From NCBI GenBank assembly GCA_022711395.1, contig JAKLFA010000002.1, positions 3,864 to 67,863 of the forward strand: DNA of 64,000 bases, written 5' to 3'. Of the stretch, positions 15,558 through 64,000 are shown piece after piece. Positions within the stretch are counted from its first letter, which is position 1; each line of letters starts with the position of its first letter. The translations under genes and the position numbers were made by a program. Source of the DNA: Candidatus Omnitrophota bacterium. GTDB taxonomy: Bacteria; Omnitrophota; Gorgyraeia; Zapsychrales; JANLHA01. A model generated the notes under the pieces. That model was not told where the DNA came from and searched no databases. It worked only from the letters and a program-made list of their open reading frames with translations.

Positions 15558-15706
15558 GGCACTAAGGCACTAGGACACTACGGCACTGCGAACGTGAAAG
15601 AGAGAAAAGTAAAAACCTCAAGGACAAAAGTGAAGATGAAAAAGATTTTTATTTTACCGGGTTTAAGGTTTTTAGTGTCTTAGTGTCATAGTGCCCTAGT
15701 GTCTCG
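15558..15706 (+). repeat. family-B palindromic element (GGCACTAA/GACACTAC octamer arm ... inverted TAGTGTCTTAGTGTCATAGTGCC arm)
   Basis: Left arm at 15558-15600 including AACGTGAAAG; right arm at 15660-15706 preceded by GGTTTAAGGTTTTT. Followed by TTTTTTTAAGAAAGGAAcgatATG of the next gene. Confidence 0.85.
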
Positions 15707-18503: not shown

Positions 18504-18820
18504 CGGCACTAAGGCACCAAGTCACTAAGGCACCAAGTCACTAAGGCACTAAGGCACTAAGGCACTATGACACTAAAAAATCAGGCACTAAGACACTACG
18601 ACACTCAGGCACTAGCAACATCTAGTGGCACGATGTTTTGGTTTAGGGTTTTAGTGTCACAGTGTCTTAGTGTCACAGTGTCTTGTTTTAAGGTTTTAGT
18701 GTCACAGTGTCTTAGTGTCACAGTGTCTTGTTTTAAGGTTTTAGTGTCATAGTGCCGTAGTGTCATGGTGTCTTGGTTTAAGGTTTATAGTGTCTCAGTG
18801 TCCTAGTGTCTTAGTGTCTA
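18504..18820 (+). repeat. large family-B palindromic element with a 4 x ~46-bp higher-order array
   Basis: Left arm: tandem octamers GGCACTAA/GGCACCAA/GTCACTAA up to ~18612. Loop contains TGGCACGATG. Right arm: four units [TGTTTTAAGGTTTT + AGTGTCACAGTGTCTTAGTGTCACAGTGTCT]. Confidence 0.9.
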
Positions 18821-24620: not shown

Positions 24621-25259
24621 ATGAAATATGAAGAATTCGTTAAATATGTGCGTGATTTGCCGGTTATTGAATCAGAGCTCTTTATTGCCACTGAGCCAAA
24701 TCCTGATGCGCTTAAGGTTCAGTTTAGCCGGTGGGTTGCTACGGGTAAACTGATCCAATTGCGGCGCGGTGTCTATGTGCTGCCTGCGCATTATTGTGAT
24801 AAGCCGGGCAATGCGTTTTATGCGGCCAATATTTTGAAAAAGCCATCCTATATCAGTCTCGAAAAGGCATTGGAATTTTATGGTCTGATTCCGGAGGCGG
24901 TCAGGGTTTTTACATCCGTGACGAGCAAACGGGCGGGGCATTTTGAAAATGATCTCGGAGAATTTGATTACCGGCATATTCATCCGGATTTGTTTTGGGG
25001 ATATCAGCCGGTGAAGCTGGAAGGTCAGAATGTTCTGATGGCGCGTCCCGAAAAGGCTGTTCTGGATTTGATGTACCTTAACGCGGTGGATGTTTCTTCG
25101 GAATTTTTTGACGGATTACGTCTGCAGAATATCGAAAGCCTGAACGCTGCGCAGCTGGCTGATGATGCCAGGCGTTTTGGTAAGTCGGTGATGGTCAAAC
25201 GGGCGAATGTGCTGGCCGAATATCTTAAAGGCCTCCAGCAGGGAGAAAGGCGTTTATGA
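24621..25259 (+). CDS. AbiEi-family antitoxin-like protein (second copy)
   Basis: LIQLRRGVYVLP signature; overlaps the downstream AbiEii gene. Confidence 0.65.
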   Translation: MKYEEFVKYVRDLPVIESELFIATEPNPDALKVQFSRWVATGKLIQLRRGVYVLPAHYCDKPGNAFYAANILKKPSYISLEKALEFYGLIPEAVRVFTSVTSKRAGHFENDLGEFDYRHIHPDLFWGYQPVKLEGQNVLMARPEKAVLDLMYLNAVDVSSEFFDGLRLQNIESLNAAQLADDARRFGKSVMVKRANVLAEYLKGLQQGERRL

Positions 25260-26059
25260 AGGATTATGCTGTTTCATTAGCTGTTTCGCAACAAGGCATG
25301 GATCAAAAGCGCAATATTCTACGTGAATATATCCAATCGTATGCGTTGTCCTTGCTGCAAAAGAGCGGGGTTTTTCAGGCATGGGCGTTTGTCGGAGGGA
25401 CAGCATTGAGATTTTTGTATGATCTTCCGCGTTTCTCAGAGGACCTGGATTTTTCGTTGGAGAAGCCCTTTGAGAAGGATTTTGAGGATGTCCTTAAGTT
25501 TTTAAAAGACGAATTAAACGCTGCAGGATACAACGTGGAGGTGTCTTGCCGCGTTCAGAAAACGGTTCAATCAGCGATGGTGAGGTTTTCCGGTTTGCTT
25601 TACGAAACGGGGATCTCACCGTTGAAAGATCAAAAAATGTCGATTAAGATCGAGATCGATACCCATCCTCCTGACGGCGCCGCTTGTGTCACAAAGCTGA
25701 TCAACCGCTATATGCCGATCTCATTTTTATCTTATGATATTCCATCGTTGTTTTCCGGAAAAATTCATGCCCTGTTAAGCCGTCCGTATACAAAGGGAAG
25801 GGATTTTTATGATGTGTGTTGGTATGTTTCAAAATTCAAGGATTTGACGCCTAATATGATTTTTCTGTGTAATGCTTTGAAACAGACAGGGTGGGAAAGG
25901 GATCTTCCAACAGCGCGGGATTGGAAGAATTATGTTGCGGATGCTGTTGAACAGGTGGATTGGGCGGTTATTTCTAAAGATGTCACGCCTTTTTTGGAAC
26001 GTTCCGGGGATATGGATGTCTTTACAAAAGAACAGATTTTGATAATGCTGAAGGGGTAA
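25256..26059 (+). CDS. AbiEii-family nucleotidyltransferase toxin (second copy)
   Basis: FVGGTALRFLYDLPRFSEDLDFS motif. Confidence 0.8.
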   Translation: MKDYAVSLAVSQQGMDQKRNILREYIQSYALSLLQKSGVFQAWAFVGGTALRFLYDLPRFSEDLDFSLEKPFEKDFEDVLKFLKDELNAAGYNVEVSCRVQKTVQSAMVRFSGLLYETGISPLKDQKMSIKIEIDTHPPDGAACVTKLINRYMPISFLSYDIPSLFSGKIHALLSRPYTKGRDFYDVCWYVSKFKDLTPNMIFLCNALKQTGWERDLPTARDWKNYVADAVEQVDWAVISKDVTPFLERSGDMDVFTKEQILIMLKG

Positions 26060-44785: not shown

Positions 44786-45994
44786 ATGGCTAATGATTCA
44801 AAAAATCTTAGAGTGCTGCATCTTCGAAGTTCGGGGGGATTCTACGGTGCTGAGGCGGTGATTGTCAATCTCGCCAAGGAGCAGTTGCGTCAGAATGTGG
44901 ATGTGTGTGTTGGCGTGCTTGTTCGCTCGGATGTGGAGGATGTTGAGCATAGCCCGTTGGCGCTACGTTGCAAGGAAGAGGGGATCCCTGTCCGTCTGTT
45001 TCCCTGCCGGGGAAAATTTGATAAACAGACCATTCAGAATATCCGGGAGCGCCTGCAAAAAGACAAAGTCGGGATTCTCCACACCCATGATTACAAGGCG
45101 TCTCTGTTTGGATTATTCGCGAGTAAAAATTTACCGATCAAGCGGGTTGTGACCAACCATCTTTGGACCAAGGCGAATTTTAAATTGCGCTGTTATGAGG
45201 TGATGGAAGGGATCTTATGCAATTGGTTTGATCAGGTGATCGCGGTCTCAGATACGATTTATAAAGACGTCAGACCGTTTTTGTTAAGAAAGAATAAACA
45301 CAAGCTGGCGGTAATTCTCAACGGCATCAATTGCGCAAACTTTTCGCGACAGACACATGACACAGGACACAGGACACAAGATCAAGAAAAAAATATTTTT
45401 ACGATCGGAATGGTTGGGAGGTTGAGTGTTGAAAAGGGACACATCTATTTGCTGAAGGCGTTTGAAAAATTAATAAGAATGACACATGACACACGACACA
45501 CGACACAGGGTGGAGTTAAGAGCCTGCGGCTTTTGATCATAGGTGATGGGCCGTTGCATGAGAGGTTGGTGCAGTTAGTACATCGGACTAAGATCCTGCG
45601 CGGAAAGGTTCGGTTCTTACCTGCGCAGAAAGATATCAAAAAGTTCTACGACCAAATGGATGTATTGGTTCTGCCGTCATTAAGTGAAGGGCTGCCCATG
45701 ACATTGTTGGAAGGCATGGCGATGGAGCTGCCGGTTGTGGCCACACGTGTTGGCGGTGTGCCGGATGTGATCAAGGACGGATTTAATGGGCTTCTTGTTG
45801 ATCCGGCGGAGGTTGAGCAATTAACAGAAGCGATTAAGAAAATAATAAATATGACACATGACATACGACACATGACACAGGGGGAGGCAAGAGAATTGAA
45901 GGAATTGACGACAAATGCCAGAGAAACAGTCGAGTTGCATTTTTCAACCCAGCGTATGGCGGCGGAATATTTGAACGTATATAAAAATTTATAA
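44786..45994 (+). CDS. glycosyltransferase family 4 with three in-frame family-A repeat insertions
   Basis: GT4 core (SLSEGLPMTLLEGMAMELPVVATRVGGVPDVIKDGFNGLLV). Inserts at 45350-45382 (RQTHDTGHRTQD), 45480-45508 (MTHDTRHTTQG) and 45852-45880 (MTHDIRHMTQG). Confidence 0.8.
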   Translation: MANDSKNLRVLHLRSSGGFYGAEAVIVNLAKEQLRQNVDVCVGVLVRSDVEDVEHSPLALRCKEEGIPVRLFPCRGKFDKQTIQNIRERLQKDKVGILHTHDYKASLFGLFASKNLPIKRVVTNHLWTKANFKLRCYEVMEGILCNWFDQVIAVSDTIYKDVRPFLLRKNKHKLAVILNGINCANFSRQTHDTGHRTQDQEKNIFTIGMVGRLSVEKGHIYLLKAFEKLIRMTHDTRHTTQGGVKSLRLLIIGDGPLHERLVQLVHRTKILRGKVRFLPAQKDIKKFYDQMDVLVLPSLSEGLPMTLLEGMAMELPVVATRVGGVPDVIKDGFNGLLVDPAEVEQLTEAIKKIINMTHDIRHMTQGEARELKELTTNARETVELHFSTQRMAAEYLNVYKNL

Positions 45995-45995
45995 C

Positions 45996-46130
45996 GGACA
46001 CACGACACATGACACACGACACACGGTATACGACACAGGACACAGGACACAGGACACAGGTTAGAACCCTTGTGCCTTGTGTCTTGTGTCTGTGTGTCTG
46101 GTTTTTGTGTCTTGTGTCTTGTGTCTGCCT
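45996..46130 (+). repeat. family-A palindromic element (GACACAN heptamers / inverted CTTGTGTC array) spanning stop-to-start
   Basis: Direct reading of the sequence. The right arm encodes the Cys/Leu/Val-rich N-terminus of the next ORF. Confidence 0.85.
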
Positions 46131-48963
46131 TTTGGGATGCAGCAAGCTAGAACCTAAAGAAGAAGCGTCTGAATCCAAAAAGGCAATACCGTATGATGCA
46201 AAGAAGGGGATGTTTAGTGATTTTGAAGGATCGGATCCGGTGTCGTGGGGTGGGGTCTCTACGGAGATAGTGCAAGGCGGGGAATGTGGGGAATTGGAAA
46301 ATGGAAAAGGGAATATGGAAAATGGAAAAGTCAAAACCGACAATCATTCAAATCCCTTTTCTATCGTCCATTCTCCATCTTCCAGTACAAATAAATGTTT
46401 AAAAGTGACCTACCCCAAAGGGGATTTTCCAGGCCTTAGCGCTAAGCGTCTGCCGTCGGACTGGTCGAATTTCGGCATATTGGTCATGGATGTTTTTAAT
46501 CCTTCCGAGGAGGTTGTTCCTTTCGGGATCCTTATTAAGGACAAGCCCGGCGGCCACAGCTATCCCAACCGGTTGGACAAGCAGTTTGCGTTTAAACCTG
46601 GTAAAAACAAGTTTATTTTTAATATCACAGGGCTCAAAACCAATGACGGCAAGCGCCAGATGGACCTGTCGCAGATCATGGAATTGATCGTGTTCTTGTC
46701 TCAACCAAAAGAACCGGTCACTCTGTATTTTGATAACATCCGTTTGGAACATGCCGCGGGTTCAGAGATCGAGGGGATGAAGCGTTTTGATCTTGGCACA
46801 CAGGGTTCTGAAGTCTGGCCGGGCTTTTTGCAGGTCACGGACAAGACACATTATAGTGAAGAGGCCGGTTACGGCTGGTCGTATTTAGGCCAGGCGGATG
46901 CTCAGGACAGAGGGCAGTATCCGGATGCTTTGTTTCGGGACTGGATCCGCACGGCAACGCCGTTTAAAGTGGATGTCAAGAACGGCCAGCATGTGGTGTA
47001 TGTGATGCTGGAGGATCCTGGGGCGTGGGAATATTATCAAAATTTTAAAGAGCGCCGGTTTTATGCTGAAGATGTTCTTGTCGGTGAAGACAAGATGACT
47101 CCCGAACAATTTTTTAGCGATCATTATTATCGGCACATGAACCATGAGGACTTTCCCGGACAGGATGTGTTTGAGGAGTATGTGCAGAAGCGTTTTGTCT
47201 GGAAGCGTTTTGTCATCGATGTTGCGGATCGTCAATTGACATTAAAATGCGAGCCGAATACCGCTTATGCCTGCACGATCAGCGCGATCATCACCGCGCC
47301 TCTTGAGCAGGATGATAAAGTTCAGCAATATTTGAAACTTCTCGATCGTCAGCGCAAAGAGTTTTTTGATGGACAGTATGTCGAAAAGGTCCCGCAGTTT
47401 GATTCTCTGGATGAAAAGCTGGTGAAACAATATCAAAGCCTCGGGTTCATCCCGTTTGTCAAAAATTATGATCAGATGTTATATCCTGCAGAACCTCCGA
47501 AAAAGAGTCAAGCGGTTGATCGAATTCAGATCTTCGCGGCACAGGGAGAAAAAGAGCCTTTTGTGATTGGGATCTATCCGCTGCAGGCTGGTGGGCAGTT
47601 GCATGTTGACATAACAGATTTGGTTTTAAATGATGGTGTAAAGATTCCAAGCGATGCAATTTTGATCCGTTGGGTGCAGTACCGTCTAAAACGGATGTAT
47701 AGTGGCAGAGTTTATAGTGTGGTCGGAGATATGTTACGAACTAATAGCCAGGTTGTTTTAAAGAAGGGGCAGACAAGGTATTTTTGGTTTACGGTGAACG
47801 TTTCTAAAGATGCTCGTCCGGGAGATTATAAAGGGTCTGTCATTATTCGTGAGAATAACGTCGAGGTAAAGAGAATCAGCGTGGAGTTGAAAGTTCTTCC
47901 ATTTGGGCTTGATGACCCCGACATTGCGATCGGGTTGTTTTACACGCTGCCTCCGCAGTTCAATTGGTATGAGGAAACACAAAACCAGCGGTGGACTGAG
48001 GTTGAAAGGCAACTTCAGGATATGCGTGACCATGGGATGAACACATTGGCTTTAAGTATTATGCCGGGTGTTAAGGCTATTAATGACAGCGGTGATGCGG
48101 AGTTGGACTTTGCCTTTTTTGATGACTTCCTGCACGCGTATAAGCATTTTGGTTTCGACAGGCCGGTCTCAGGCTATGGGCTGATTAGTGTTTTTCATCA
48201 GATCCGTCAAAAGACCGAAGGTAATCCGAAGCTTTTTGCAAAAGCCATGGAGAATGCGTTCGGCCAGATCCAGTGGCACGCACAGCAAATTGCTGGGGTG
48301 GATATGGTGGCAGGGTTGGCGGATGAGCTTTCTAATACGGGAGGTGCTGGAATCGATTCAATTATTCCAGCAGCGGAGGTATTAAAGAATGCGGGTATAA
48401 GGGCGACAGGATTTTTTAACAATCCAAAAGATATCAAAGTGTTTGATTATTTTTCTGATGTAACGGTAAGCAATGATATACATATTGATCAGGATTTTCT
48501 TTCTAGGGTGGAGAAATCAGGGGCGAATCTTTGGTTTTATAACACGGGCCATGACCGGTTTAGCTTCGGTTTGCATTTGTGGAAGACGAAGGCAAAGGGC
48601 AAGGTGCAGTGGCATTATCAATTGCCGTCTGTGGATCCTTATTTTGACCTGGATGGTAGGGAAGGAGATACATGCGCATCTTATCCATCACCTGCGGGCC
48701 CGATCAATACGGTGTGGTTTGAGCTGGCGCGGGAAGGGATCGATGATTACCGGTATCTTAAAATCCTTGAAAAGATGATGGAAGAGAGAAAAGGGAAGAT
48801 GGATGCGGATGCGACGATAGAGCGTGCTGAAAAGTTTTTAGAAGCGTTGAGGAAAGATATTCCCGTTGAGTTGGATAAGCGTAAAGAAATCCCGGATGAA
48901 TTTTATGATGTGACGCGAAAAACAGCGGCGGACCTTATAACGGAACTATTAAGGACGCCATGA
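46009..48963 (+). CDS. large secreted protein, probable lipoprotein (possible glycoside-hydrolase-like); true start uncertain (GTG/TTG within 46060-46080 plausible)
   Basis: The N-terminal hydrophobic stretch ending in LLGC|S resembles a lipobox. In-frame family-C insert at 46279-46384 (GELENGKGNMENGKVKTDNHSNPFSIVHSPSS). About 900-aa soluble region with no confident family. Confidence 0.45.
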   Translation: MTHDTRYTTQDTGHRTQVRTLVPCVLCLCVWFLCLVSCVCLLGCSKLEPKEEASESKKAIPYDAKKGMFSDFEGSDPVSWGGVSTEIVQGGECGELENGKGNMENGKVKTDNHSNPFSIVHSPSSSTNKCLKVTYPKGDFPGLSAKRLPSDWSNFGILVMDVFNPSEEVVPFGILIKDKPGGHSYPNRLDKQFAFKPGKNKFIFNITGLKTNDGKRQMDLSQIMELIVFLSQPKEPVTLYFDNIRLEHAAGSEIEGMKRFDLGTQGSEVWPGFLQVTDKTHYSEEAGYGWSYLGQADAQDRGQYPDALFRDWIRTATPFKVDVKNGQHVVYVMLEDPGAWEYYQNFKERRFYAEDVLVGEDKMTPEQFFSDHYYRHMNHEDFPGQDVFEEYVQKRFVWKRFVIDVADRQLTLKCEPNTAYACTISAIITAPLEQDDKVQQYLKLLDRQRKEFFDGQYVEKVPQFDSLDEKLVKQYQSLGFIPFVKNYDQMLYPAEPPKKSQAVDRIQIFAAQGEKEPFVIGIYPLQAGGQLHVDITDLVLNDGVKIPSDAILIRWVQYRLKRMYSGRVYSVVGDMLRTNSQVVLKKGQTRYFWFTVNVSKDARPGDYKGSVIIRENNVEVKRISVELKVLPFGLDDPDIAIGLFYTLPPQFNWYEETQNQRWTEVERQLQDMRDHGMNTLALSIMPGVKAINDSGDAELDFAFFDDFLHAYKHFGFDRPVSGYGLISVFHQIRQKTEGNPKLFAKAMENAFGQIQWHAQQIAGVDMVAGLADELSNTGGAGIDSIIPAAEVLKNAGIRATGFFNNPKDIKVFDYFSDVTVSNDIHIDQDFLSRVEKSGANLWFYNTGHDRFSFGLHLWKTKAKGKVQWHYQLPSVDPYFDLDGREGDTCASYPSPAGPINTVWFELAREGIDDYRYLKILEKMMEERKGKMDADATIERAEKFLEALRKDIPVELDKRKEIPDEFYDVTRKTAADLITELLRTP

Positions 48964-50387
48964 AAATCCTATTTCTTACCAAAGAACTTCCTTATCCCAT
49001 CAATTCCGGCGCGCGGATGCGTAGCTGGCATTATGTCCGTGGCCTAAGCCGGGCGGGCTATGTCCACATGGTATGTTTTGGCAGGCTTGAGGACAATCGT
49101 GAAGGCGCCAAGACGCTGAGGGAAATGGGCGTGGATGTGATCTTTGAAGATAAAGGTGGCAGACGCCTTTATCCGGTTCTGTCGCGGCTTGTGGGCCTGT
49201 TTTCACCATTGCCGTACGCGGTTTGGGTCCGCAGGTCTTCTGCAATGAAGGAGAAAATTCGCCGGATCATTCTTGAGTCGAGCTGTGAAGTCGCCGCTTG
49301 TGACGGTATCCATCAGGCCTTGAACATCCCGCTGGATGTGAACTGCCGAAAGATCCTGGATGAACATAATGTTGAGTCGACGCTCGTTGGCCGTTATGCG
49401 GCAGCCGAATCCAATCCGGTCAAAAAAACGTACGCGTTTTTAGAATGGCTGAAATTCCGCGCCTTTGAGAACCGGATGTGGAAAAAATTTGATGAGATCC
49501 ACGTCTGTTCTTCGGTTGATAAACATGAGGTGGAGAAGCGGACTGGGCACAAGAATGTGCATGTTGTGCCTAACGGCGTTACTATCGAGTCACTAAGGCA
49601 CTATGACACTAAGGCACTAAAAAATACCGACACTGAGGCGCCAAGACACTGTGACACTAAAACATCAGGTGTTGCTAGTGCCATAGTGTCTCAGTGTCTA
49701 GTGTCACCAAGCGGAGATAAGCCGTTCCGTTTGGTTTATAGCGGTTTGATGGGTTGGAAACCTAACGAAGATGCGGCGCTTTACTTCGGGCACAATATTT
49801 GGCCTGAAATAAAAAAGGCACTAAGGCACTGCGACACTAAGGCACTAAAAAATCAAGGCACTGGGGCACTAAGACACTGTGACACTAAAACTTCCGATGG
49901 TTCTAGTGCCATAGTGTCTGAGTGTCATAGTGTCTCAATTGAGTGGTTTATAGTTGGAAGAGGGCCTACTCAAAAAGTAAAAGAATTGGCTGAGAATGAT
50001 GAGTCGATCACCGTCACCGGCGAGGTCGCGGACGTGAAGCCGTTGGTGGAGTCTGCGGATATCGTGATCGTGCCCTTGCGGATCGGAAGCGGGACCCGGC
50101 TGAAGATTTTGGAAGCTATGGCCATGAGTAAGCCCGTTGTCTCGACCTCGATCGGGTGTGAAGGCCTGGATGTCACCAGTGGTGAAAATATTGTGATCGC
50201 TGATATGCCGGAGGATTTTGCGAGTACGGTTTTAAAATTAATGAACGATCCTCAAGAGCGCGCGCGTATTGCCGAGAATGGGCGCAGGTTGGCGGAAGAG
50301 AAGTATGATTGGGAGATTATTGAAAAAAGTTTAGCGGAATTAATCATGACACTCAGGCACAAAGACACTGAGGCACTGAGAACGTGA
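48960..50387 (+). CDS. glycosyltransferase family 4 with two complete in-frame family-B palindromic insertions and a repeat-derived C-terminal tail
   Basis: GT4 core (PLRIGSGTRLKILEAMAMSKPVVSTSIGCEGLDV). Inserts at 49591-49708 and 49817-49936 each encode ~RHYDTKALKN...RHCDTKTS...SAIVSQC.... Tail ...LRHKDTEALRT* at 50347+. Confidence 0.8.
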   Translation: MKILFLTKELPYPINSGARMRSWHYVRGLSRAGYVHMVCFGRLEDNREGAKTLREMGVDVIFEDKGGRRLYPVLSRLVGLFSPLPYAVWVRRSSAMKEKIRRIILESSCEVAACDGIHQALNIPLDVNCRKILDEHNVESTLVGRYAAAESNPVKKTYAFLEWLKFRAFENRMWKKFDEIHVCSSVDKHEVEKRTGHKNVHVVPNGVTIESLRHYDTKALKNTDTEAPRHCDTKTSGVASAIVSQCLVSPSGDKPFRLVYSGLMGWKPNEDAALYFGHNIWPEIKKALRHCDTKALKNQGTGALRHCDTKTSDGSSAIVSECHSVSIEWFIVGRGPTQKVKELAENDESITVTGEVADVKPLVESADIVIVPLRIGSGTRLKILEAMAMSKPVVSTSIGCEGLDVTSGENIVIADMPEDFASTVLKLMNDPQERARIAENGRRLAEEKYDWEIIEKSLAELIMTLRHKDTEALRT

Positions 50388-51882: not shown

Positions 51883-52509
51883 ATGATGGAAAATCTGCGC
51901 CAATTGGCTGTGACAGAAGAATTTGATTATAATTTTCTTCTTCACGCCCTTTCTGAATACAAGAATCCCCGCGTTAAGATCAATGATCTGCTCAAAAAGG
52001 GCGATATCATCCGGGTCAAGAAGGGACTGTATGTTTTTGGGAACCGCTGGGCCCGCCAGCCGTATTTCAAAGAAACCCTGGCCAATCTGATCTATGGGCC
52101 GTCCTATATTTCGCTTGAATACGCGCTTTCTTTTTACGGGCTGATACCGGAGCGGGTTGAGACGTTGACCAGCGTGACCAATAAGCGGAAAAAAATTTTC
52201 CATACGCCGCTCGGAATTTTTTCCTACCGCTATATCCATCTTGATTTTTTCAGCGTAGGCACGACACTGCGGGTTTTGGACCGTTATCATACGATCCTCA
52301 TCGCGACCCCGGAGAAGGCATTGTGCGATATGCTGTATTTTTATGATCCGGCCCAGAGCCTGGAACAGTTGCGGATGTATCTTTTTGAAAATCTGCGGAT
52401 CGATGATGCTGCCGTAAAAAAGTTCAGTCTGAGCCGCGCCCGGGCGATCGCTTCAGTCTATGGAGGACGCGTGCGCCTGTTTGAACAGCTTCTGAAAGGA
52501 ATGAAATGA
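51883..52509 (+). CDS. AbiEi-family antitoxin-like protein (third copy)
   Basis: IIRVKKGLYVFG signature; overlaps the downstream AbiEii gene. Confidence 0.65.
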   Translation: MMENLRQLAVTEEFDYNFLLHALSEYKNPRVKINDLLKKGDIIRVKKGLYVFGNRWARQPYFKETLANLIYGPSYISLEYALSFYGLIPERVETLTSVTNKRKKIFHTPLGIFSYRYIHLDFFSVGTTLRVLDRYHTILIATPEKALCDMLYFYDPAQSLEQLRMYLFENLRIDDAAVKKFSLSRARAIASVYGGRVRLFEQLLKGMK

Positions 52510-53372
52510 ACGACGCGCTGAAAGTCATGCTTGATCGGTATCAATGCCGGAGCTGGGAGGATTATGAGAACGCCTTGAAGGAAATGATCCAGCAGATCGC
52601 TCTGTTGGGGCTGTGGCGGTCGAAATTTTTTGAAAAGGCTGCCTTTTATGGCGGCTCAGCCTTGCGGATCCTCTACGGGCTGGACCGGTTTTCAGAGGAC
52701 TTGGATTTTTCCTTATTGAAGAGAAACACGGGATTTTCTCTGGCGGAATATACCGGAGCGGTTGAGCATGAATTGCGGAGTTTCGGTTTTGCGGTCACTG
52801 TTGAGAAGAAGATAAAGTCGGTGGAGACTTGTATCGAGTCGGCGTTCATTAAGGCCGGGACGATTCAGAACATGCTTGTCATTGACACGCCGCGGGAGGT
52901 TGTGGGGCAGGTCCATAAGCGCAAAGAGCTTAAGGTCAAATTTGAGGTCGATGTGGATCCTCCGCCGGGATTTGCGGTCGAGGCGAAGTTTCTGTTTCAG
53001 CCGCTGCCGTTTTCCGTTAATGCCTATGCTCCGGCCGATCTGTTCGCCGGCAAGATCCAAGCGTGTTTATGCCGGTCCTGGAAGAACAGAGTGAAGGGCA
53101 GGGATTGGTATGACCTGGTGTGGCATGTCTCACGTGATATCCCGGTCCATTTAGAACATCTTGAGCAGCGTCTGAGACAGTCCGGGGATTTAGAGGCCGG
53201 GGTATTTTTGACAGGAGCAGATTTAGAGCGTATGCTTCTGGAGAAGATCGGGCAGGTTGATTTTGATCTGGCCCGGCAGGATGTGAAGAATTTTCTCAAA
53301 GACCCGGCGCCGCTGAGCCTTTGGAGTAAAGAGTATTTTCAGGCAGTCTGTGCGAAGATCAGGTGTGTTTAG
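52506..53372 (+). CDS. AbiEii-family nucleotidyltransferase toxin (third copy)
   Basis: FYGGSALRILYGLDRFSEDLDFS. Confidence 0.8.
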   Translation: MNDALKVMLDRYQCRSWEDYENALKEMIQQIALLGLWRSKFFEKAAFYGGSALRILYGLDRFSEDLDFSLLKRNTGFSLAEYTGAVEHELRSFGFAVTVEKKIKSVETCIESAFIKAGTIQNMLVIDTPREVVGQVHKRKELKVKFEVDVDPPPGFAVEAKFLFQPLPFSVNAYAPADLFAGKIQACLCRSWKNRVKGRDWYDLVWHVSRDIPVHLEHLEQRLRQSGDLEAGVFLTGADLERMLLEKIGQVDFDLARQDVKNFLKDPAPLSLWSKEYFQAVCAKIRCV

Positions 53373-54621: not shown

Positions 54622-55329
54622 ATGGGGAAGAAAGTTTTAGGTTTGATCGCGGTATTTGTGCTGGCGGGGGCCGTTTCCGCATCGGCGGCGGTTATCAACA
54701 TCCCGGTCACGGCTGCAGGGGATGGGACGTCATGGAGGTATTGGGGATGGTTTGGAAGTGGTAGCGGGTTTTCAGCAGACGCAAATCCTAATGAGGCGCG
54801 GCATTCATACTGGCCGGGCGATGGAAATGAAAGCGCTTCATATTTACAGTTCCAGCTCAGTGATTTCACCGGAACGGCGGAGCAGATCTCATCAGCCTCA
54901 TTTAATTTTAATGTTCTTGGGTTTATCGATGGCGGGCAGGATAATCGTGATACAAAGGGAAATATTTATCATGCCTCAAATTCAAGTTCGGCTAACGGCA
55001 ACGCATCACAGAAGTTGGGCGGCGATCAATTTGTCGGATCTGTTACTGGTTCAACAGCCATGGGTTGGAATTCTTTTGATATTACCTCTTATTTAAAAAA
55101 TGACGTGACTAGTGATTATAATTGGGTTGCGTTCAGCATTTCAAGCCCGGGTTATGCGGGTTTCAGTTTTTCCTCTGCCGAAAGCGGCAATGCGGCGTAT
55201 TTGCGCATCGTCACGGCAGATGCCACCAATGGCGGCGGGACGACCAATGCGGTTCCGGAGCCTATGACCATGTCGTTGTTCGGTCTGGGCGGCGCGGCGT
55301 TGGCGTTTGTCAGACGGCGCATTTTATAA
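54622..55329 (+). CDS. PEP-CTERM sorting-domain protein (secreted, Gly/Ser-rich)
   Basis: RBS AAAGGAG; signal peptide MGKKVLGLIAVFVLAGAVSASAA. C-terminal VPEPMTMSLFGLGGAALAFVRRRIL is PEP + TM + basic cluster. Confidence 0.9.
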   Translation: MGKKVLGLIAVFVLAGAVSASAAVINIPVTAAGDGTSWRYWGWFGSGSGFSADANPNEARHSYWPGDGNESASYLQFQLSDFTGTAEQISSASFNFNVLGFIDGGQDNRDTKGNIYHASNSSSANGNASQKLGGDQFVGSVTGSTAMGWNSFDITSYLKNDVTSDYNWVAFSISSPGYAGFSFSSAESGNAAYLRIVTADATNGGGTTNAVPEPMTMSLFGLGGAALAFVRRRIL

Positions 55330-57204: not shown

Positions 57205-58431
57205 ATGTTAAAAAAGATCCTGGTCACTGGTGGCGCTGGTTTTATCGGTTCACACACGGTTGTGGAACTGGCCAATGCCGGTTATGAGCCGGTGATCGTG
57301 GATAATTTCAGCAATTCCAGCCGCGGCGTCCTTAAAAACCTCAAAAAGATCCTCGCCCGTGAAGTCACCTGTTATGATGGCGACTGCTGTGACCGTTTGT
57401 TTCTTGAACAGGTTTTTACCAAAGAGAAAAATATTCAGGGAGCGATCCATTTCGCGGCGCTCAAGGCGGTGGGGGAGTCGGTCAAAGAGCCGCTCTTGTA
57501 TTACCGTAACAATATCGATTCGCTGCTCGTCTTGCTGGACGTGATGAAGGAGTATGGCGCACAGCTGTTCGTGTTTTCTTCATCGGCGACTGTTTACGGC
57601 GCGGCGGACCGGCTGCCGGTCACCGAAGAAACTCCGCTTAAGCCTGCGGAATGCCCGTATGGCGTGACCAAGCAGGTGGGAGAGCAGATCGTGCGGGACG
57701 CGGTCACAGCCGGTTACGGCTTAAAGGCGGTTTCTTTGAGGTATTTCAATCCGATCGGCGCGCACGAAACCGCCCTGATCGGAGAACTTCCGATCGGCGT
57801 GCCCAAAAACCTGGTTCCCTATGTCACCCAGGTCGCTGCCGGCCTGTTGCCGGAGCTGACCGTGCACGGCAATGATTATTCGACACCGGACGGGACTCCT
57901 ATCCGTGATTATATCCATGTCCTTGATTTGAGTGCGGCCCATGTCGCGGCGTTGAAATATTTAACTAAGACACTAGGACACTATGACACTAAGGCACTAA
58001 GAAACAAAAACGCTGAGGCACTAAGACACTGTGACACTAAAAAATCAGATGTTACGAGTGCCATAGCTCTGCGGAATTCGCAGAATTCCTCAGAATTAGT
58101 CCCCGGAGGGATGTCTGAGTGTCATAGTGCCGATGGTTTGAGTGCCTTAGTGCCTGAGTGTCTCAGTGCCTCAGTTGGTTATGATGTCTTCAATCTCGGC
58201 ACCGGCAAAGGCAACAGCGTGATGGAAGTGATCTCGACATTTGAAAAGGCCACCGGCGTGAAGCTCAAATATAAGATCGGCCCGCGCCGTCCCGGGGACA
58301 TTGAATCGATCTATGCGGACGCTTCCAAAGCGGAAAAATTACTGGGCTGGAAAGCAAACCGCTCTTTGTCCGACTCATTGAAGAGCGCGTGGGAGTGGCA
58401 GAAGAATATCAGCATAAAGGGTAAAGCGTAA
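57205..58431 (+). CDS. galE: UDP-glucose 4-epimerase with ~70-aa in-frame family-B palindromic insertion
   Basis: Classic GalE N-terminus MLKKILVTGGAGFIGSHTVVEL, the YGVTK (YxxxK) motif and C-terminal FNLGTGKGNSVMEV. Insertion at 57966-58173, between ...AAHVAALKYL and GYDVFNLG, encodes TKTLGHYDTKALRNKNAEALRHCDTKKSDVTSAIALRNSQNSSELVPGGMSECHSADGLSALVPECLSASV. Confidence 0.85.
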   Translation: MLKKILVTGGAGFIGSHTVVELANAGYEPVIVDNFSNSSRGVLKNLKKILAREVTCYDGDCCDRLFLEQVFTKEKNIQGAIHFAALKAVGESVKEPLLYYRNNIDSLLVLLDVMKEYGAQLFVFSSSATVYGAADRLPVTEETPLKPAECPYGVTKQVGEQIVRDAVTAGYGLKAVSLRYFNPIGAHETALIGELPIGVPKNLVPYVTQVAAGLLPELTVHGNDYSTPDGTPIRDYIHVLDLSAAHVAALKYLTKTLGHYDTKALRNKNAEALRHCDTKKSDVTSAIALRNSQNSSELVPGGMSECHSADGLSALVPECLSASVGYDVFNLGTGKGNSVMEVISTFEKATGVKLKYKIGPRRPGDIESIYADASKAEKLLGWKANRSLSDSLKSAWEWQKNISIKGKA

Positions 58432-59121: not shown

Positions 59122-60042
59122 ATGAAAAAGCATTATCCGTTTTTTCTTTCATTTTTCCTGGTTTTACTGGCATACGTGCCGACGTTCGACTGGATGCGGA
59201 TCCGGTGGTTTTCGGCCAGTTCGTATTACAGCCACGGGGTCCTTGTTCCGTTCGTCGTGGCGTATCTGATCTGGCAGAAGTGGCCGGAAATATTGGAGAC
59301 ACTAAGGCACTGTGACACTAAGACACTGAAAGACACGGAGACGCCACGACACTCAGACACGATGACACTAAAAAACAAAGGCGCTGAGGCGCCAGATGTT
59401 GCAAGTGTCACAGTGTCACAGTGCCCTAGTGCCTTAGGATTACCGTTAATCGTGATAGGGTTATTGGCCCATATCTTCAGTTCCGTGATGCGGGTGGGGT
59501 TCATTTCCGGCTTTTCCATGTGGGTGGTCCTGGCCGGGCTGATCCTGCATTTTTACGGGATGAAAATGTTCAAGACCGTGCTGTTTCCGCTGGTGTTTCT
59601 GCTTTTTATGATCCCGTTGCCTGAACTCATTGTGGTCAATGTTTCGTTCCGGATGAAGATGTTCGCCGCCGGGATCGCGGAGAAGGTCATTAACGCCATG
59701 GGTATTTTGGCGATCAGGGAGGGCAGCGTGATCCGCATGCCCAATGCCTTTGTGGTGGTGGATGATGTCTGTTCGGGCCTGCGCAGCCTGATCTCTCTGA
59801 CGGCGCTGGGAAGTATTTTTGCCTACTGGTTCAAGGGCCCGATGTGGAAGCGCTGGCTGGTGTTTGCCATGACCGCTCCGATCGCGGTGGCCACAAACGT
59901 CTGCCGGGTGGTGCTTTTGTCTTTTGTCGCCGAAGTCTGGGGGCATGAGGCGGCCAGCGGCTTTGTGCACGATCTTTCGGGGTTTAGCGTATTCGCCCTG
60001 GCGTTTCTGATGCTGTTGGCGTTCGGGAAGATGATTGAATGA
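59122..60042 (+). CDS. xrtA: exosortase (EpsH/XrtA-type) with in-frame family-B palindromic insertion
   Basis: N-terminal ...SYYSHGVLVPFVVAYLIW and DDVCSGLRSL (active-site Cys region). Multiple TM helices. Insertion at 59297-59438 encodes ETLRHCDTKTLKDTETPRHSDTMTLKNKGAEAPDVASVTVSQCPSALG. Assignment to the A subtype is inferred from the EpsI gene nearby. Confidence 0.8.
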   Translation: MKKHYPFFLSFFLVLLAYVPTFDWMRIRWFSASSYYSHGVLVPFVVAYLIWQKWPEILETLRHCDTKTLKDTETPRHSDTMTLKNKGAEAPDVASVTVSQCPSALGLPLIVIGLLAHIFSSVMRVGFISGFSMWVVLAGLILHFYGMKMFKTVLFPLVFLLFMIPLPELIVVNVSFRMKMFAAGIAEKVINAMGILAIREGSVIRMPNAFVVVDDVCSGLRSLISLTALGSIFAYWFKGPMWKRWLVFAMTAPIAVATNVCRVVLLSFVAEVWGHEAASGFVHDLSGFSVFALAFLMLLAFGKMIE

Positions 60043-60048
60043 AAACCA

Positions 60049-60097
60049 TGACACTAAGGCACTAAGGCACTAAGGCACTGAGACACTAAGGCACTAA
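60049..60097 (+). repeat. family-B left arm (GACACTAAGGCACTAAGGCACTAAGGCACTGAGACACTAAGGCACTAA)
   Basis: Forms the left half of a giant palindrome whose right half is at 60512-60647; the four-helix-bundle gene lies in the loop. Confidence 0.85.
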
Positions 60098-60147
60098 AAG
60101 AAATCATCCCAAAAGTAATCCCCTAGAGAAATAACACGGAGGATGAA

Positions 60148-60507
60148 ATGGGTGAGCAGGTAGGATATAAAAAACTTTTTGTATGGCAGAAGGCAGATCA
60201 ATTTGCATTTGAGATTTATGGTGCGAGCGAGGGTTTTCCGAGGAAGGAAATGTTTGGTCTGACATCACAGTTGAGGAGAGCGGCTTTATCGATTCCAACA
60301 AATTTGGCAGAAGGTCAGGGCCGGCAGGGCAGGAAAGAGTTCCGGCAATTTGTGAATATTGCATTGGGTTCTGCGACAGAGGTTGAGTATTTGTTAGATT
60401 TTGCGTGTCGTTTAAAGTATTTGGATGAAAAGGCGAGTATCCGATTGCAGGGTCTTCGCAGGGAAGTTAGTTCGCTGTTGTGGAAGTTATTACAAAGTTT
60501 GTCTTAA
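60148..60507 (+). CDS. four-helix-bundle protein (23S rRNA intervening-sequence protein family, TIGR02436-like)
   Basis: 119 aa with ...KADQFAFEIYGASEGFPRKEMFGLTSQLRRAALSIPTNLAEGQGR...ALGSATEVEYLLDFA..., characteristic of this family. Confidence 0.8.
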   Translation: MGEQVGYKKLFVWQKADQFAFEIYGASEGFPRKEMFGLTSQLRRAALSIPTNLAEGQGRQGRKEFRQFVNIALGSATEVEYLLDFACRLKYLDEKASIRLQGLRREVSSLLWKLLQSLS

Positions 60508-60511
60508 TCGG

Positions 60512-60647
60512 TTTTTAGTGTTTTTAGTGCCGTAGTGTCTTAGTGTCACAGTGTCTTGTTTTAGGTTTTCAGTGCCATAGTGCCTTAGTGTCATAGTGTC
60601 TTGTTTTAGGTTTTCAGTGCCATAGTGCCTTAGTGTCCTAGTGTCTT
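60512..60647 (+). repeat. family-B right arm, 2 x [AGTGCCATAGTGCCTTAGTGTCATAGTGTCT + TGTTTTAGGTTTTC]
   Basis: Reverse complement of the octamer array at 60049-60097. Ends 15 bp before the RBS region of epsI. Confidence 0.85.
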
Positions 60648-61308: not shown

Positions 61309-61505
61309 GGCACTAAGGCACTAAGGCACTAAGGCACTAAGGCACTAAGGCACTAAGGCACTAAGGCACTAAGGCACTAAGGCACTAAGGCACTAAGGCA
61401 CTAAGGCACTAAGGCACTAAGGCATTGGTATCTTAGTGACTAGGTTTTAAGGGTTTAAGGTTTTTAGTGTCTCAGTGTCATAGTGTCCTAGTGTCTTGTT
61501 TTAAG
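61309..61505 (+). repeat. (GGCACTAA) x ~14.5 perfect tandem octamer array followed by inverted family-B arm
   Basis: 61309-61424 is a pure 8-mer array. It is followed by GGTTTTAAGGGTTTAAGGTTTTTAGTGTCTCAGTGTCATAGTGTCCTAGTGTCTTGTTTTAAG. Confidence 0.95.
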
Positions 61506-61716
61506 CCCGCAACACTTTGTTTATCACCTTAAACACGTATCCGCAACGTTTCCCAGCAATGACAATAATTGTGTCCTATGTTGTCATAGTATATCCAGGT
61601 CTGTCATGATTTATCCATGTAATTTTTGTTGAAATATGTTAGGTGTTAAGGCTTTTTTCGACTTAAAAAAGCTGCTTTTTTGTTTTTTGGAAACGCTTTC
61701 TTGAAAGCGCTTTTTT

Positions 61717-61731
61717 TGGCACGCCTATTGC
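61717..61731 (+). promoter_or_regulatory. sigma-54 (-24/-12) promoter TGGCAC-N5-TTGC
   Basis: TTGGCACgcctaTTGCTA, ~55 nt upstream of the sugar transferase ATG (61784). Confidence 0.6.
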
Positions 61732-61783
61732 TATAACTGTAATACTTGCCGTGAGGCATCAGCTTTGAGAGAGGAAAAAAACG

Positions 61784-62629
61784 ATGTTCAGAACAAGAAA
61801 AAAAGTTAAAAATTTTGCGTCACTTTTGATATTAATCATTGCGGGGCTGTTTGTTACAACAACCGCCTGGGCTGCTGTCACGGTCATGACCGCTGATCAG
61901 GAAAAGAACGGTGTCTATCACTCGGAAGACAGAGGCGTTGCCGGCCCTTCAGATGGAGTGAAATCCCGCGCCCCGGAACCTTCGACCCTGGCGCTGTTCG
62001 CCAGCGGGCTGATGGGGATGATCGTTTCATTTGTCCGTAAGACCTATCATGTGACCAAGCGCATTCTGGATATCGCGGCCGGTGTTTTGGGGTTGGTCGT
62101 TCTTTCTCCGTTGTTTTTGCTCACCGCGGTCCTTATTAAATTGACGTCCAAGGGGCCGATCTTTTACACCCAGGTCCGGGTGGGAAAAGACGGCGTCCCG
62201 TTTAAAATGTATAAATTCCGCACGATGCGCACGGATGCCGAAATGGGCACCGGTGCTGTCTGGGCCAAAGAAAATGATGACCGTATCATTCCGGTCGGAC
62301 GATTTTTACGCAAGGCCCATATTGATGAAATCCCTCAATTTTTAAATATTTTAAAAGGCGATATGTCTTTGATCGGCCCGCGCCCTGAACGGCCGGAATT
62401 CGTGAAGAAGCTTTCGCTGCAGATCCCGGATTATGAAAAGCGCCTGCGCGTGAAGCCCGGTCTGACCGGTTTGGCGCAGGTTTGGCACCGTTATGATGAA
62501 ACGCTTGCGGATGTTCGCAAAAAGGTCAAATATGACCTGATGTATATTAAGAAGGTTTGTCTTTGGACGGACCTCAGGATCTTTTTCAGGACCTTCCGGG
62601 TCGTTGTGACCGGTGAAGGGGCGCATTGA
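61784..62629 (+). CDS. polyprenyl-phosphate sugar phosphotransferase (bacterial sugar transferase, EPS priming enzyme) with an N-terminal signal-peptide + PEP-CTERM-like module
   Basis: C-terminal Bac_transf domain (FKMYKFRTM, DEIPQF, LIGPRPERPEF). The N-terminal 86 aa comprise signal peptide MFRTRKKVKNFASLLILIIAGLFVTTTAWA and APEPSTLALFASGLMGMIVSFVRK. Confidence 0.8.
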   Translation: MFRTRKKVKNFASLLILIIAGLFVTTTAWAAVTVMTADQEKNGVYHSEDRGVAGPSDGVKSRAPEPSTLALFASGLMGMIVSFVRKTYHVTKRILDIAAGVLGLVVLSPLFLLTAVLIKLTSKGPIFYTQVRVGKDGVPFKMYKFRTMRTDAEMGTGAVWAKENDDRIIPVGRFLRKAHIDEIPQFLNILKGDMSLIGPRPERPEFVKKLSLQIPDYEKRLRVKPGLTGLAQVWHRYDETLADVRKKVKYDLMYIKKVCLWTDLRIFFRTFRVVVTGEGAH

Positions 62630-62801: not shown

Positions 62802-63416
62802 ATGAAAAATTTTCGCAAATTCAAGGCTAATCGTAAAACGGCGATCATGACCGTCATCGGTCTGATAGCGGCGCTTCTGCTGATTCAGACCGGGGCGAGC
62901 GCGTTGCCGATCTTCAATTCCGACAACGGACATTATTATGACATTGTGGTCAGCCAGGACACGATCTCATGGATCAACGCGAATGCGGCGGCTGAAGCCT
63001 CTGTTTATGAAGGAAAGGCCGGGCATTTGGCCACGATCACATCCCAGGAAGAGCAGGATTGGATCTCCAACAATTTTTTCCCCAGCAATGCGTGGCTGGG
63101 AGGGTTTCAGAACGTGGGATCTCTGGATTATGATGAACCCAACGGCGGTTGGGAATGGGTGACCGGCGAGCCTTTTTCTTACAGGAATTGGCAGGACGGA
63201 AGGCCTGATAATGAGAATGAGGGAGAGGATTATTTATCGAGCGGGGATGATGATCAGGGATGGGATGACCGCAGCGATGACGATAATGAGATGGACTCTT
63301 ATATAGTGGAATATGAAAGCGACCCGGCCGTAACTGCCACACCGGAACCGATGAGCTTGGTTCTGTTGGGGGGAGGGTTGTTCGGTTTGGCAGGGTTGAA
63401 AAGGAGAAAAGCATAA
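62802..63416 (+). CDS. PEP-CTERM protein with C-type-lectin-like domain
   Basis: Signal peptide. CTLD-like GHLATITSQEEQDWIS...AWLGGF...GGWEWVTGEPFSYRNWQDGRPDN. C-terminal TPEPMSLVLLGGGLFGLAGLKRRKA. Confidence 0.85.
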   Translation: MKNFRKFKANRKTAIMTVIGLIAALLLIQTGASALPIFNSDNGHYYDIVVSQDTISWINANAAAEASVYEGKAGHLATITSQEEQDWISNNFFPSNAWLGGFQNVGSLDYDEPNGGWEWVTGEPFSYRNWQDGRPDNENEGEDYLSSGDDDQGWDDRSDDDNEMDSYIVEYESDPAVTATPEPMSLVLLGGGLFGLAGLKRRKA

Positions 63417-63418
63417 CA

Positions 63419-64000
63419 TGAAAAAATTTATTACGACAGCTTTGGTGATGTTGGGCGTTGCGGCGTTCCCGTTGCAGGCGCATGCTTTGTTCACCAACAT
63501 CGGGTTTGAGACCGGGGATTTTACCGGATGGACGATTCCCGCAGGGTATGGCGTTCCCAGTGACCGTTCGGTTGAGTTCGGTTCTGACGCCGGGGCAGGA
63601 TACGGCACGTATTTCGCCAAGATCCAGGCGAGTGACGCTGACACCTGGATCGCGATCGTGCAGACCGCGACCCTGGAGGCCGGGACCAAGATCGATGGGG
63701 CGTTCAAGTTTGATTATTTAGATGAAGGGGCCCCTCATCTTGATGAAGCGATCGTTCAGATCCAGCATGCCGGATGGGCGAATCCCTTAGAGCCGTATTA
63801 TGTGGCTGGTGAAAGCACTGATGGTTGGCTGTATTGGTCATGGACAGCTCCGGAGGACGGAAGCTACACGCTGTCTTACGCGGTCAAGAACGTCGGGGAT
63901 GAAGATGTTCCAAGTTATGGATTTTTTGATACCAAACAGACGGCCCCGAATGCTGTTCCGGAACCGATGAGCTTGACGCTGATGGCCGGCGGCCTGGCAG
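63419..64000 (+). CDS. PEP-CTERM protein (3' end truncated by window edge)
   Basis: RBS AAAGGAG; signal peptide MKKFITTALVMLGVAAFPLQAHA. ...NAVPEPMSLTLMAGGLA reaches the window end. Confidence 0.8.

Follow-up and report, generated by a model that had tools for sequence, protein, structure and literature searches.

A PEP-CTERM sorting signal inside the priming phosphoglycosyl transferase of Omnitrophota exopolysaccharide loci

Exosortases were named in 2006 for their constant presence in exopolysaccharide (EPS) loci. How the sorting of proteins is linked there to the synthesis of polysaccharides is a question of long standing, as is the acceptor of PEP-CTERM proteins, if there is any. Here we describe a gene whose product joins the sorting signal to the enzyme that starts the polysaccharide. 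It lies in a 64-kb stretch from a Candidatus Omnitrophota bacterium (contig JAKLFA010000002.1, positions 3,864 to 67,863), the whole of which we call the window, and it consists of the open reading frame (ORF) 61784..62629 of the plus strand, coding for 281 amino acids (aa). Its product, termed PEP-PGT, carries a PEP-CTERM signal in front of a phosphoglycosyl transferase (PGT). A preliminary description of this DNA had noticed the ORF and quoted its first residues, and both are present exactly as it gave them. This appears to be a new architecture: the PEP-CTERM signal is used internally, and the protein represents a new N-terminal class of monotopic PGT.

Canonical substrates of exosortases (PepA of Zoogloea and Aquincola; Haft 2006) begin with a signal peptide and contain a Pro-Glu-Pro motif abutting a transmembrane (TM) helix followed by a basic cluster. 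Their expression depends on sigma-54 and their genes have an exosortase in the neighbourhood. PEP-PGT shares all these features, sigma-54 dependence as judged from its promoter sequence. In the canonical proteins, however, the module ends the chain and the N-terminal passenger is functional, while PEP-PGT continues beyond the module for 195 residues of enzyme and has only a vestigial passenger. The median number of residues found after PEP-CTERM is 3, and 87% of the proteins have fewer than 10 (Haft 2006, PMC1569441). In the ArtA/PGF-CTERM and sortase/LPXTG systems we also find a tripartite signal, made of a motif, a TM helix and basic residues, and a Cys/Arg/His enzyme which removes the C-terminal helix (10.1101/2023.06.07.544157), but the helix removed there has no known further function.

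On the enzyme side, PglC of Campylobacter, a small monotopic PGT (SmPGT), has the same catalytic core with its Asp-Glu dyad and a re-entrant helix with a Ser-Pro break, at 34-35% identity. PglC begins at the re-entrant helix, whereas PEP-PGT adds a signal peptide, a periplasmic stub and the TM helix of PEP-CTERM. The definition of SmPGTs asks for the core only (PMC11626204), and PEP-PGT exceeds it by 86 N-terminal residues, which hold two more hydrophobic helices. It fits into no published class of monotopic PGTs – small, large or bifunctional (PMC11626204) – and makes up a fourth architectural class of the superfamily. The large priming transferases (TIGR03013 EpsB_2/TIGR03025, WbaP/WcaJ) are likewise the priming PGTs of exosortase-containing EPS loci and have a homologous catalytic domain, but their link to the exosortase is genomic co-occurrence only, where PEP-PGT has a covalent tag. 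Finally, fusions of the Rosetta-stone type (EpsH with a CAAX protease; exosortase with EpsI in XrtD/XrtW) have already revealed partners of the sorting system; in those the enzyme is joined to accessory domains, while here a substrate signal is joined to a glycan-priming enzyme. The architecture seems to be previously undescribed; we found no paper linking PEP-CTERM with a phosphoglycosyl or priming transferase in one protein, an earlier mention in Haft et al. 2012 being still possible.

Composition and topology of PEP-PGT

Starting from its N-terminus, PEP-PGT is made of a signal peptide, a variable spacer of some 30 aa, the PEP-CTERM module (residues 63-86), a basic junction of eight residues and a PglC-like small monotopic PGT. 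The preliminary description had already read a signal peptide, a spacer, Pro-Glu-Pro, a TM helix and a basic cluster in frame with a Bac_transf domain, and profiles, an AlphaFold2 (AF2) model and alignments with Protein Data Bank (PDB) entries agree with it. The parts are as follows.

61784..61873, plus strand: predicted Sec-type signal peptide, codons 1-30 (n-region of charge +5, hydrophobic core, AWA/A site)
61874..61960, plus strand: variable periplasmic spacer, predicted disordered, codons 31-59 (1.23 bits per column; predicted local distance difference test, pLDDT, below 50 at residues 40-61)
61961..62041, plus strand: PEP-CTERM module, KSRAPEPST with TM helix and basic cluster, codons 60-86 (PF07589, TIGR02595)
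62042..62146, plus strand: cytoplasmic junction TYHVTKR and re-entrant helix of the PGT, codons 87-121 (AF2 break at 107/108; alignment with PglC)
62147..62629, plus strand: PglC-like catalytic domain, codons 122-281, and stop (PF02397, 231 bits)
62324-62329, plus strand: Asp181-Glu182 dyad, invariant among homologues

Profile searches recognise both halves of the protein. In Pfam, PF07589 (PEP-CTERM) matches residues 63-86 with 23.3 bits, the gathering threshold being 20.7, and reaches 25.8 bits on residues 1-86 alone; among the NCBIfam profiles, TIGR02595 (PEP_CTERM) scores 18.0 bits for a cut-off of 16. PF02397 (Bac_transf) covers residues 92-275 with 231 bits, without overlap with the PF07589 match. 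TIGR03025 is passed too (304.9 bits, cut-off 295.55), with only its positions 250-444 aligned, that is the catalytic core; its N-terminal half has no counterpart in PEP-PGT. The XrtA-associated TIGR03013 (EpsB_2, full length about 443 aa) remains at 264.9 bits, below its cut-off of 393.35, and only positions 250-442 of the profile align. As in other PEP-CTERM proteins, Pro-Glu-Pro directly abuts a hydrophobic stretch (residues 69-83), which is followed by R85 and K86 and further on by K92 and R93; a signal peptide, recognised by inspection, opens the same protein; an exosortase is encoded 1.7 kb upstream, and four canonical PEP-CTERM genes lie within 10 kb.

The signal peptide was assigned from its n, h and c regions and from Kyte-Doolittle hydropathy. 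Residues 1-11 (MFRTRKKVKNF) comprise five Lys or Arg and no acidic residue, the hydrophobic core occupies residues 12-27, and the c-region TTAWA/A has A-W-A at positions 28-30, with A30 conserved in at least 90% of 75 homologues. We infer that this peptide is cleaved. Three hydrophobic segments are present in all, with hydropathy windows centred at 15-25, 74-78 and 100-114. Counting Lys and Arg against acidic residues, the charges are +5/0 in residues 1-11, +4/-5 in the loop 31-63 and +4/0 in the junction 84-93. The spacer (31-59) is poorly conserved, has a net charge of about -1 and a median length of about 31 aa among homologues. KSRAPEPST follows at residues 60-68, then the helix (69-83), the stretch R-K-T-Y-H-V-T-K-R (85-93) and the re-entrant helix (94-121). 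The AF2 model also shows a helix over residues 2-41.

The re-entrant helix of PglC begins and finishes on the cytoplasmic face. Because of this, and because of the charge pattern, we infer a topology which is self-consistent: the N-terminus is in and the spacer out, the PEP motif borders the inner membrane on its outer face, and the junction and catalytic domain are in again. A PEP-CTERM protein has the identical topology before it is processed (Haft 2006, PMC1569441, figure 4 legend). The difference is that the cytoplasmic 'tail' of PEP-PGT runs on into an enzyme.

This enzyme is of a well-known kind. Among PDB sequences it matches WbaP in the C-terminal domain (8t53, E=1.8e-32) and PglC over its full length (8g1n, E=1.1e-29), residue 9 of the PglC chain being aligned with residue 90 of PEP-PGT. 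Compared by Foldseek, the AF2 model (pLDDT 76) matches PglC 8e37_A with E=4e-12 and a TM-score of 0.80 normalised to PglC. The break of the re-entrant helix falls at Ser108-Pro109 (107/108 in the AF2 model); in an alignment of 75 sequences P109 is invariant and S108 is present in at least 90%, while D181, E182, K92, R93 and D96 never vary. The membrane helix of its own which the preliminary description had ascribed to the Bac_transf domain is this re-entrant helix, as seen both in the model and in the PDB sequence alignment. PEP-PGT can accordingly be described as a small monotopic PGT of the PglC type, preceded by 86 residues that PglC lacks, and its catalytic part should work as PglC does. 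We take it to be the priming enzyme of the Wzx/Wzy-type EPS locus that surrounds it; neither tblastn nor Pfam annotation found a second priming transferase, and PEP-PGT is the sole Bac_transf protein in the 64 kb.

Conservation of the fusion and of its surroundings

The best 120 matches from a search of 5.8 billion proteins served as the homologue set. These proteins are 58-100% identical to PEP-PGT, mostly about 280 aa long (range 219-336) and, where labelled, mostly from Candidatus Omnitrophota. The motif to which the preliminary description had drawn attention is kept among them: P[ED]P, helix and basic residues are at the same place in 118 of the 120, and P64, E65 and P66 are invariant in the 75-sequence alignment. 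Mean information content (118 sequences) is highest for KSRAPEPST, with 3.82 bits, ahead of the catalytic domain (3.66), the helix (3.25), the junction (3.22) and the spacer (1.23). Across 21 loci R-A-P-E-P is encoded by six different codons for Arg, four for Ala, four for the first Pro, two for Glu and four for the second Pro. Since this variation is synonymous, selection acts on the amino acids, and conservation of the motif at the DNA level is ruled out. A chance PEP in a generic TM region is excluded as well, by the cut-offs of the hidden Markov models, by the invariance of the motif and by the synonymous turnover of its codons.

An identical product of 281 aa is found in four independent assemblies, in one of them on a contig of 516 kb. 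No stop or frameshift splits the PEP-CTERM part from the transferase, a point for which the preliminary description had proposed a check. Its other suggestion, that a mini PEP-CTERM gene had recently been fused to the transferase, does not hold: the fusion is fixed in at least 28 species-level genomes (52-86% identity), and a recent event is ruled out by an architecture that is kept down to about 52-58% identity. PEP-PGT is widespread among the metagenome-assembled genomes (MAGs) of Omnitrophota that we found, and occurs in at least one Elusimicrobiota MAG.

According to Pfam annotation, the window contains a complete Wzx/Wzy-type EPS locus, with genes for export and chain length (Poly_export, Wzz/GNVR, a tyrosine-kinase-like ATPase), for assembly (Wzx flippase, Wzy polymerase, at least nine glycosyltransferases) and for modification (pyruvyl-, methyl- and acetyl-transferases, together with sugar-nucleotide enzymes). 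At its 3' end come the exosortase, a PF05635 gene, EpsI, PEP-PGT and three canonical PEP-CTERM genes, coding in this order for a lectin-type protein, a protein of 203 aa and a PepA-like protein.

54622..55329, plus strand: further canonical PEP-CTERM protein of the same locus, with a CBM96 domain
59122..60042, plus strand: exosortase of the EpsH family, the presumed partner (PF09721, 206.5 bits; TIGR02602, 166 bits, cut-off 105.55)
60148-60507, between exosortase and epsI: gene for a four-helix-bundle '23S rRNA intervening-sequence protein', PF05635
60666..61304, plus strand: exosortase-associated EpsI (TIGR02914, 108.7 bits; PF11984, 124 bits)
62802..63416, plus strand: canonical PEP-CTERM protein with a C-type lectin domain (Lectin_C, 34.7 bits; PEP-CTERM at the extreme C-terminus)
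63418..64000 and beyond the end of the window, plus strand: second canonical PEP-CTERM gene (203 aa in the overlapping locus L001, 11635-12246; TIGR02595, 18.5 bits)

In the presumed partner exosortase C217, R262 and H283 are invariant in 26 orthologues; Cys, Arg and His are the proposed catalytic residues of exosortases (Haft 2006, PMC1569441). This protein passes the general models TIGR02602 and TIGR04178 only, and none of the NCBIfam models for a named subtype reaches its cut-off, the best being XrtD with 175 bits against 400.

A survey of related loci was made by scanning one genome per GTDB species with two strict peptide patterns, so that its near-exclusive Omnitrophota outcome says little about other phyla. 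It yielded 28 loci: 18 from Omnitrophota (one labelled 'Omnitrophica'), eight from 'uncultured Planctomycetales', one from a 'bacterium' and one from 'Lysobacterales'. Upstream sequence is available for 27 loci; in 25 of these the genes for exosortase, EpsI and PGT stand side by side and colinear, and an exosortase lies within 8 kb in all 27, the other two included. At least one canonical PEP-CTERM gene flanks the PGT in 28 of 28 loci, mostly directly after it. These downstream substrates differ from genome to genome; the PGT is the sole constant PEP-bearing protein. With the locus of the window itself and two long-form loci (see below) included, the flanks comprise 55 canonical PEP-CTERM ORFs, with the tail consensus VVPEPASMLLLGSGLLGLAGLRRKKK, to be compared with KSRAPEPSTLALFGSGLLGMIVSFVRKTY for the PGT module. 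Both have PEP, then S/T, and a helix starting with L-(L/F)-G-x-G.

In several related loci mini PEP-CTERM proteins of 87-127 aa are encoded shortly 3' of PEP-PGT (L009 11008-11286; L010 5714-6013; L024 11711-11974; L025 11704-11976; L027 13753-14055; L028 14448-14744; L029 10707-11039; L031 2263-2532). They consist of a lipoprotein-type signal (..YGC), a Gly/Ser-rich spacer and NPEPAxMLLLG..KKK, and with this make-up they could in principle be anchored in the membrane at both ends.

The PGT gene seems to be expressed from a promoter of its own, preceded by the end of the exosortase-epsI unit.

61572..61615, plus strand: phased TGTC/TATC repeats with a period of 10-11 nt, candidate enhancer site (read from the sequence)
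61694..61716, plus strand: terminator-like hairpin and T-run, directly 5' of the promoter, presumably ending the exosortase-epsI unit (consensus scan)
61717-61732, plus strand: sigma-54 (-24/-12) promoter TGGCACGCCTATTGCT, exact consensus

The consensus used was TGGCAC-N5-TTGCW, with GG at -24 and GC at -12; the 64 kb hold two exact matches for 0.06 expected. The promoter at 61717 that the preliminary description had assigned to the PGT conforms to this consensus, and 27 of the 28 short-form loci have, in the 400 nt before the PGT, a counterpart that deviates from it at one position or none, where chance would give less than 0.01 per locus. The TGTC repeats are found 100-145 nt upstream of the PGT promoter in the window and in loci L005-L031, and a strict version of the pattern occurs 112-135 nt upstream in 11 of 27 loci (0.01 expected from shuffles); they are probably the binding site of the activator of the sigma-54 promoter. 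An 'activator site plus sigma-54 site' has been noted upstream of proteobacterial PEP-CTERM genes (Haft 2006, PMC1569441), which the layout of the PGT promoter resembles, and pepA is under sigma-54 control (PMC9850573). Still further upstream of the TGTC repeats, a AACATGTGTT-like box is kept across many loci. The other exact sigma-54 promoter of the window (12932-12947, in the region 12932-14301) precedes an ORF of 63 aa similar to MerR/HTH_17 (13039-13230) and the Poly_export gene at the head of the export operon, and the rpoN gene (11203-12594, minus strand) lies divergent to it.

The architecture extends beyond the proteins of about 280 aa. A profile of residues 58-132, run against 1.84 billion representatives, retrieved 250 proteins at E<=1e-10, and the architecture is present in more than 200 protein clusters. 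Among them are long forms of 372-485 aa, in which an N-terminal domain precedes PEP-CTERM and PGT. PF07589 is above threshold in three of them (P0133, P0140 and P0142); P0156 has a PKD domain and P0196 comes from an Elusimicrobiota MAG. P0142 has at least 21 fused relatives (clusters) of 452-513 aa. The passenger of the long forms measures about 215 aa, and residues 5-273 of P0142 are 55-59% identical to five free-standing proteins of 267-277 aa, each of which closes with a canonical PEP-CTERM as its extreme C-terminus. This match shows that the fusions have an N-terminal module homologous to that of genuine exosortase substrates. To judge from these alignments, a PEP-CTERM gene was evidently joined to a PGT gene behind it. 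Such a joining works because the signal helix finishes on the cytoplasmic side, from which the PGT's re-entrant helix sets out. The PGT domain of the long forms is closest to short-form PEP-PGTs, 91 of 94 short matches carrying the motif, so that the fused enzymes cluster together. For the wider family, too, an origin by fusion from a PEP-CTERM gene is supported by these comparisons. The long-form genes also lie in exosortase or PEP-CTERM neighbourhoods, and their loci lack the sigma-54 promoter. In an AF2 model the passenger is beta-rich (pLDDT 78.6), with no PDB match at E<=0.001 in Foldseek. A conserved pair of genes, for a protein of 277-298 aa and then a TPR protein, is found behind them (L033 13021-15308; L034 11589-13365; L036 5600-7322; L037 13554-15301); the first protein of the pair has no match in Pfam or NCBIfam. 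The same search of representatives returned P0171, a predicted protein of 2500 aa with 11 P[ED]P motifs, which the PEP-CTERM portion of the profile matches at nine separate places; tandem PEP-CTERM genes that are read through, or a recoded genome, may account for it.

What the sorting signal may be for

The balance tips, if only slightly, towards PEP-PGT being a genuine client of the adjacent exosortase: the enzyme would sit on the C-terminal remnant that is normally discarded, and the purpose would be to couple EPS initiation to protein sorting by positioning, by licensing or by both. The sequence of events might be the following. Sigma-54 RNA polymerase would transcribe the gene from its own promoter, Sec would insert the product and signal peptidase would take off residues 1-30. 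The result would be a type-I membrane PGT, with a disordered periplasmic stub of about 33 residues and KSRAPEPST at the outer face of the inner membrane; a single TM helix would span the membrane and lead, through the basic R-K-T-Y junction, to the re-entrant helix and catalytic domain on the cytoplasmic face. The exosortase-EpsI pair encoded just upstream would recognise the PEP/TM module, and the exosortase would most probably cleave at the PEP motif, as is thought for its ordinary substrates (10.1101/2023.06.07.544157). The part normally discarded, TM helix and tail, would here be the enzyme, so that removal of the stub would leave, position or license a TM-anchored PGT at the exosortase. 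In this way EPS would be initiated where the PEP-CTERM proteins encoded downstream are sorted, and the two activities might be coupled as well.

That the exosortase processes or anchors PEP-PGT, as first surmised in the preliminary description, is plausible and has gained much support from conservation, from synteny and from homology to genuine substrates. Selection in the short family has kept the signal peptide, the motif and the helix only, while the passenger decayed to a spacer, which suggests that the encounter with the exosortase is what is selected. More tentative, and to our mind rather doubtful than probable, is the conjecture that processing of the priming PGT licenses or positions EPS initiation, in the strongest form of which the PGT held at the exosortase supplies a lipid-linked glycan acceptor for PEP-CTERM proteins. 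If the exosortase does process the PGT, this would be the first 'discarded' remnant of a sorting signal that is itself an enzyme, and the first mechanistic, physical link between exosortases and EPS biosynthesis, a link derived since 2006 from gene neighbourhood only. A large and conserved family whose members carry the sorting signal in one chain with the enzyme that starts the polysaccharide is in any event a clue of the Rosetta-stone type, suggesting that both processes meet at the inner membrane. It also makes a simple experimental handle, since size, location and activity of PEP-PGT can be followed with and without exosortase. It is not a new mechanism yet, but an unusually direct and tractable clue to the presence of exosortases in polysaccharide loci.

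Several points weigh against a genuine client. The module is not at the extreme C-terminus, 195 residues coming after it, and the rare long-tailed PEP-CTERM proteins, more variable than the others, 'may represent non-functional examples' (Haft 2006, PMC1569441). In this respect PEP-PGT is the opposite of those cases, its family varying less than canonical tails; a PEP-CTERM can be internal without being degenerate. The flanks of the motif are not the same, R-A-PEP-S-T in the PGT and V-V-PEP-A-S-M in canonical tails, and recognition could differ or be lost. The passenger comprises about 30 variable residues, and its cleavage frees nothing obviously useful. In the Elusimicrobiota long-form locus (L033) neither phmmer nor a profile of 26 exosortases found an exosortase within 10 kb. 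No gene for a sigma-54 activator (bacterial enhancer-binding protein, bEBP) was found in the window; pairs of histidine kinase and bEBP are present in the related locus L038. Lastly, residues 66-106 form a single uninterrupted helix in the AF2 model, which is impossible as membrane geometry; this helix was left unused as evidence, the model ignoring the membrane.

The same constant flanks, R62-A63 before and S67-T68 after PEP, unlike those of the canonical tails of the same loci, would suit a pseudo-substrate. The module would then bind in the groove of the exosortase, uncleaved or slowly cleaved, and either tether a complex of exosortase, EpsI and PGT or gate the exosortase by competition. 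A TM helix and an F-V-R-R-T-Y junction that are unusually conserved (3.2 bits) suggest a lasting structural role, and the stub holds no conserved sequence to deliver. We think docking without cleavage unlikely all the same, though it is the best placed of the alternatives: the long forms bear a folded passenger homologous to free-standing, presumably released proteins, which argues that cleavage is kept in at least part of the family, and the signal-peptidase site is conserved.

A somewhat poorer chance is given to the view that the module, derived from PEP-CTERM, is now nothing else than an anchor or topology determinant, with two helices (one after signal cleavage), in which the exosortase is not involved. 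Large PGTs likewise possess extra N-terminal TM helices (PMC11626204), and the remark that long-tailed PEP-CTERM may be non-functional (Haft 2006, PMC1569441) goes in the same direction. But an anchor needs neither an invariant periplasmic P-E-P whose codons change only synonymously, nor a KSRAPEPST block more conserved than the helix itself, and strict synteny of exosortase, epsI and PGT would not be expected for a generic one.

That one gene makes two products, a spacer peptide delivered by the exosortase and a PGT, in stoichiometric amounts, we consider improbable. Mini PEP-CTERM proteins (87-127 aa) that have only low-complexity passengers stand 3' of the PGT in many related loci, and the long forms have real passengers, both of which speak for it; against it, no part of the short-family proteins is less conserved than the spacer (1.23 bits), for which disorder is predicted. 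As for a frameshift, missed stop or assembly chimera that would join a mini PEP-CTERM ORF to the transferase, practically no likelihood is left to it by an ORF identical in four assemblies and an architecture present in 28 species-level genomes and over 200 protein clusters, which refute it; nothing was found in its favour.

Repeats and further genes of the locus

The locus is rich in repeats. Arrays of octamers (GGCACTAA/GACACTAA) are followed within 20-450 nt by arrays of their reverse complements (TTAGTGTC/TTAGTGCC), the pairs forming long imperfect inverted repeats scattered over the locus.

15556-15704; 18505-18819; 49815-49935; 57964-58175: octamer arrays
59296-59423: octamer array
60052-60097 with 60515-60647: octamer arrays
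61309-61497: octamer array, with 14.5 perfect copies at 61309-61424

The inverted array at 59296-59423 is inside the exosortase ORF, where it is translated as an insertion of 38 aa, LETLRHCDTKTLKDTETPRHSDTMTLKNKGAEAPDVASVTVSQCPS, at residues ~61-98. This insertion is lineage-specific, without counterpart in most of the 26 aligned orthologues (the consensus is gapped), and the catalytic Cys, Arg and His are intact. The PF05635 gene has a forward array on one side and a reverse array on the other (60052-60647), an arrangement reminiscent of the stem of an rRNA intervening sequence. The more distant locus L034 also has a PF05635 gene at this position (1820-2173), and its exosortase is a clear, lower-scoring match to that of the window. 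A second family of repeats, the heptamers GACACAC/GACACAT, is seen at 14311-14541 and 45352-46134; it includes, after the Poly_export gene, a higher-order unit of 58 nt in 3.5 copies with 98% match.

Behind the PEP-CTERM genes, 7-15 kb past the end of the window (L001 13265-20846), are genes for an MMPL/RND-like transporter, ThiF, a LolA-like protein (TP_0789/DUF1329), DUF1302, PilZ, FeeM (N-acyl amino-acid synthase) and AMP-binding, PP-binding and acyltransferase proteins. Their presence points to a possible involvement of lipids or acyl groups in the system. Three genes for AbiEii-type nucleotidyltransferase toxins lie within the polysaccharide locus (23534-24433, 25256-26059 and 52506-53372), each with a small unannotated ORF before it. 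Finally, a protein of 806 aa encoded at 7087-9507 combines cyclic-nucleotide-binding, ParA-like ATPase and patatin phospholipase domains.

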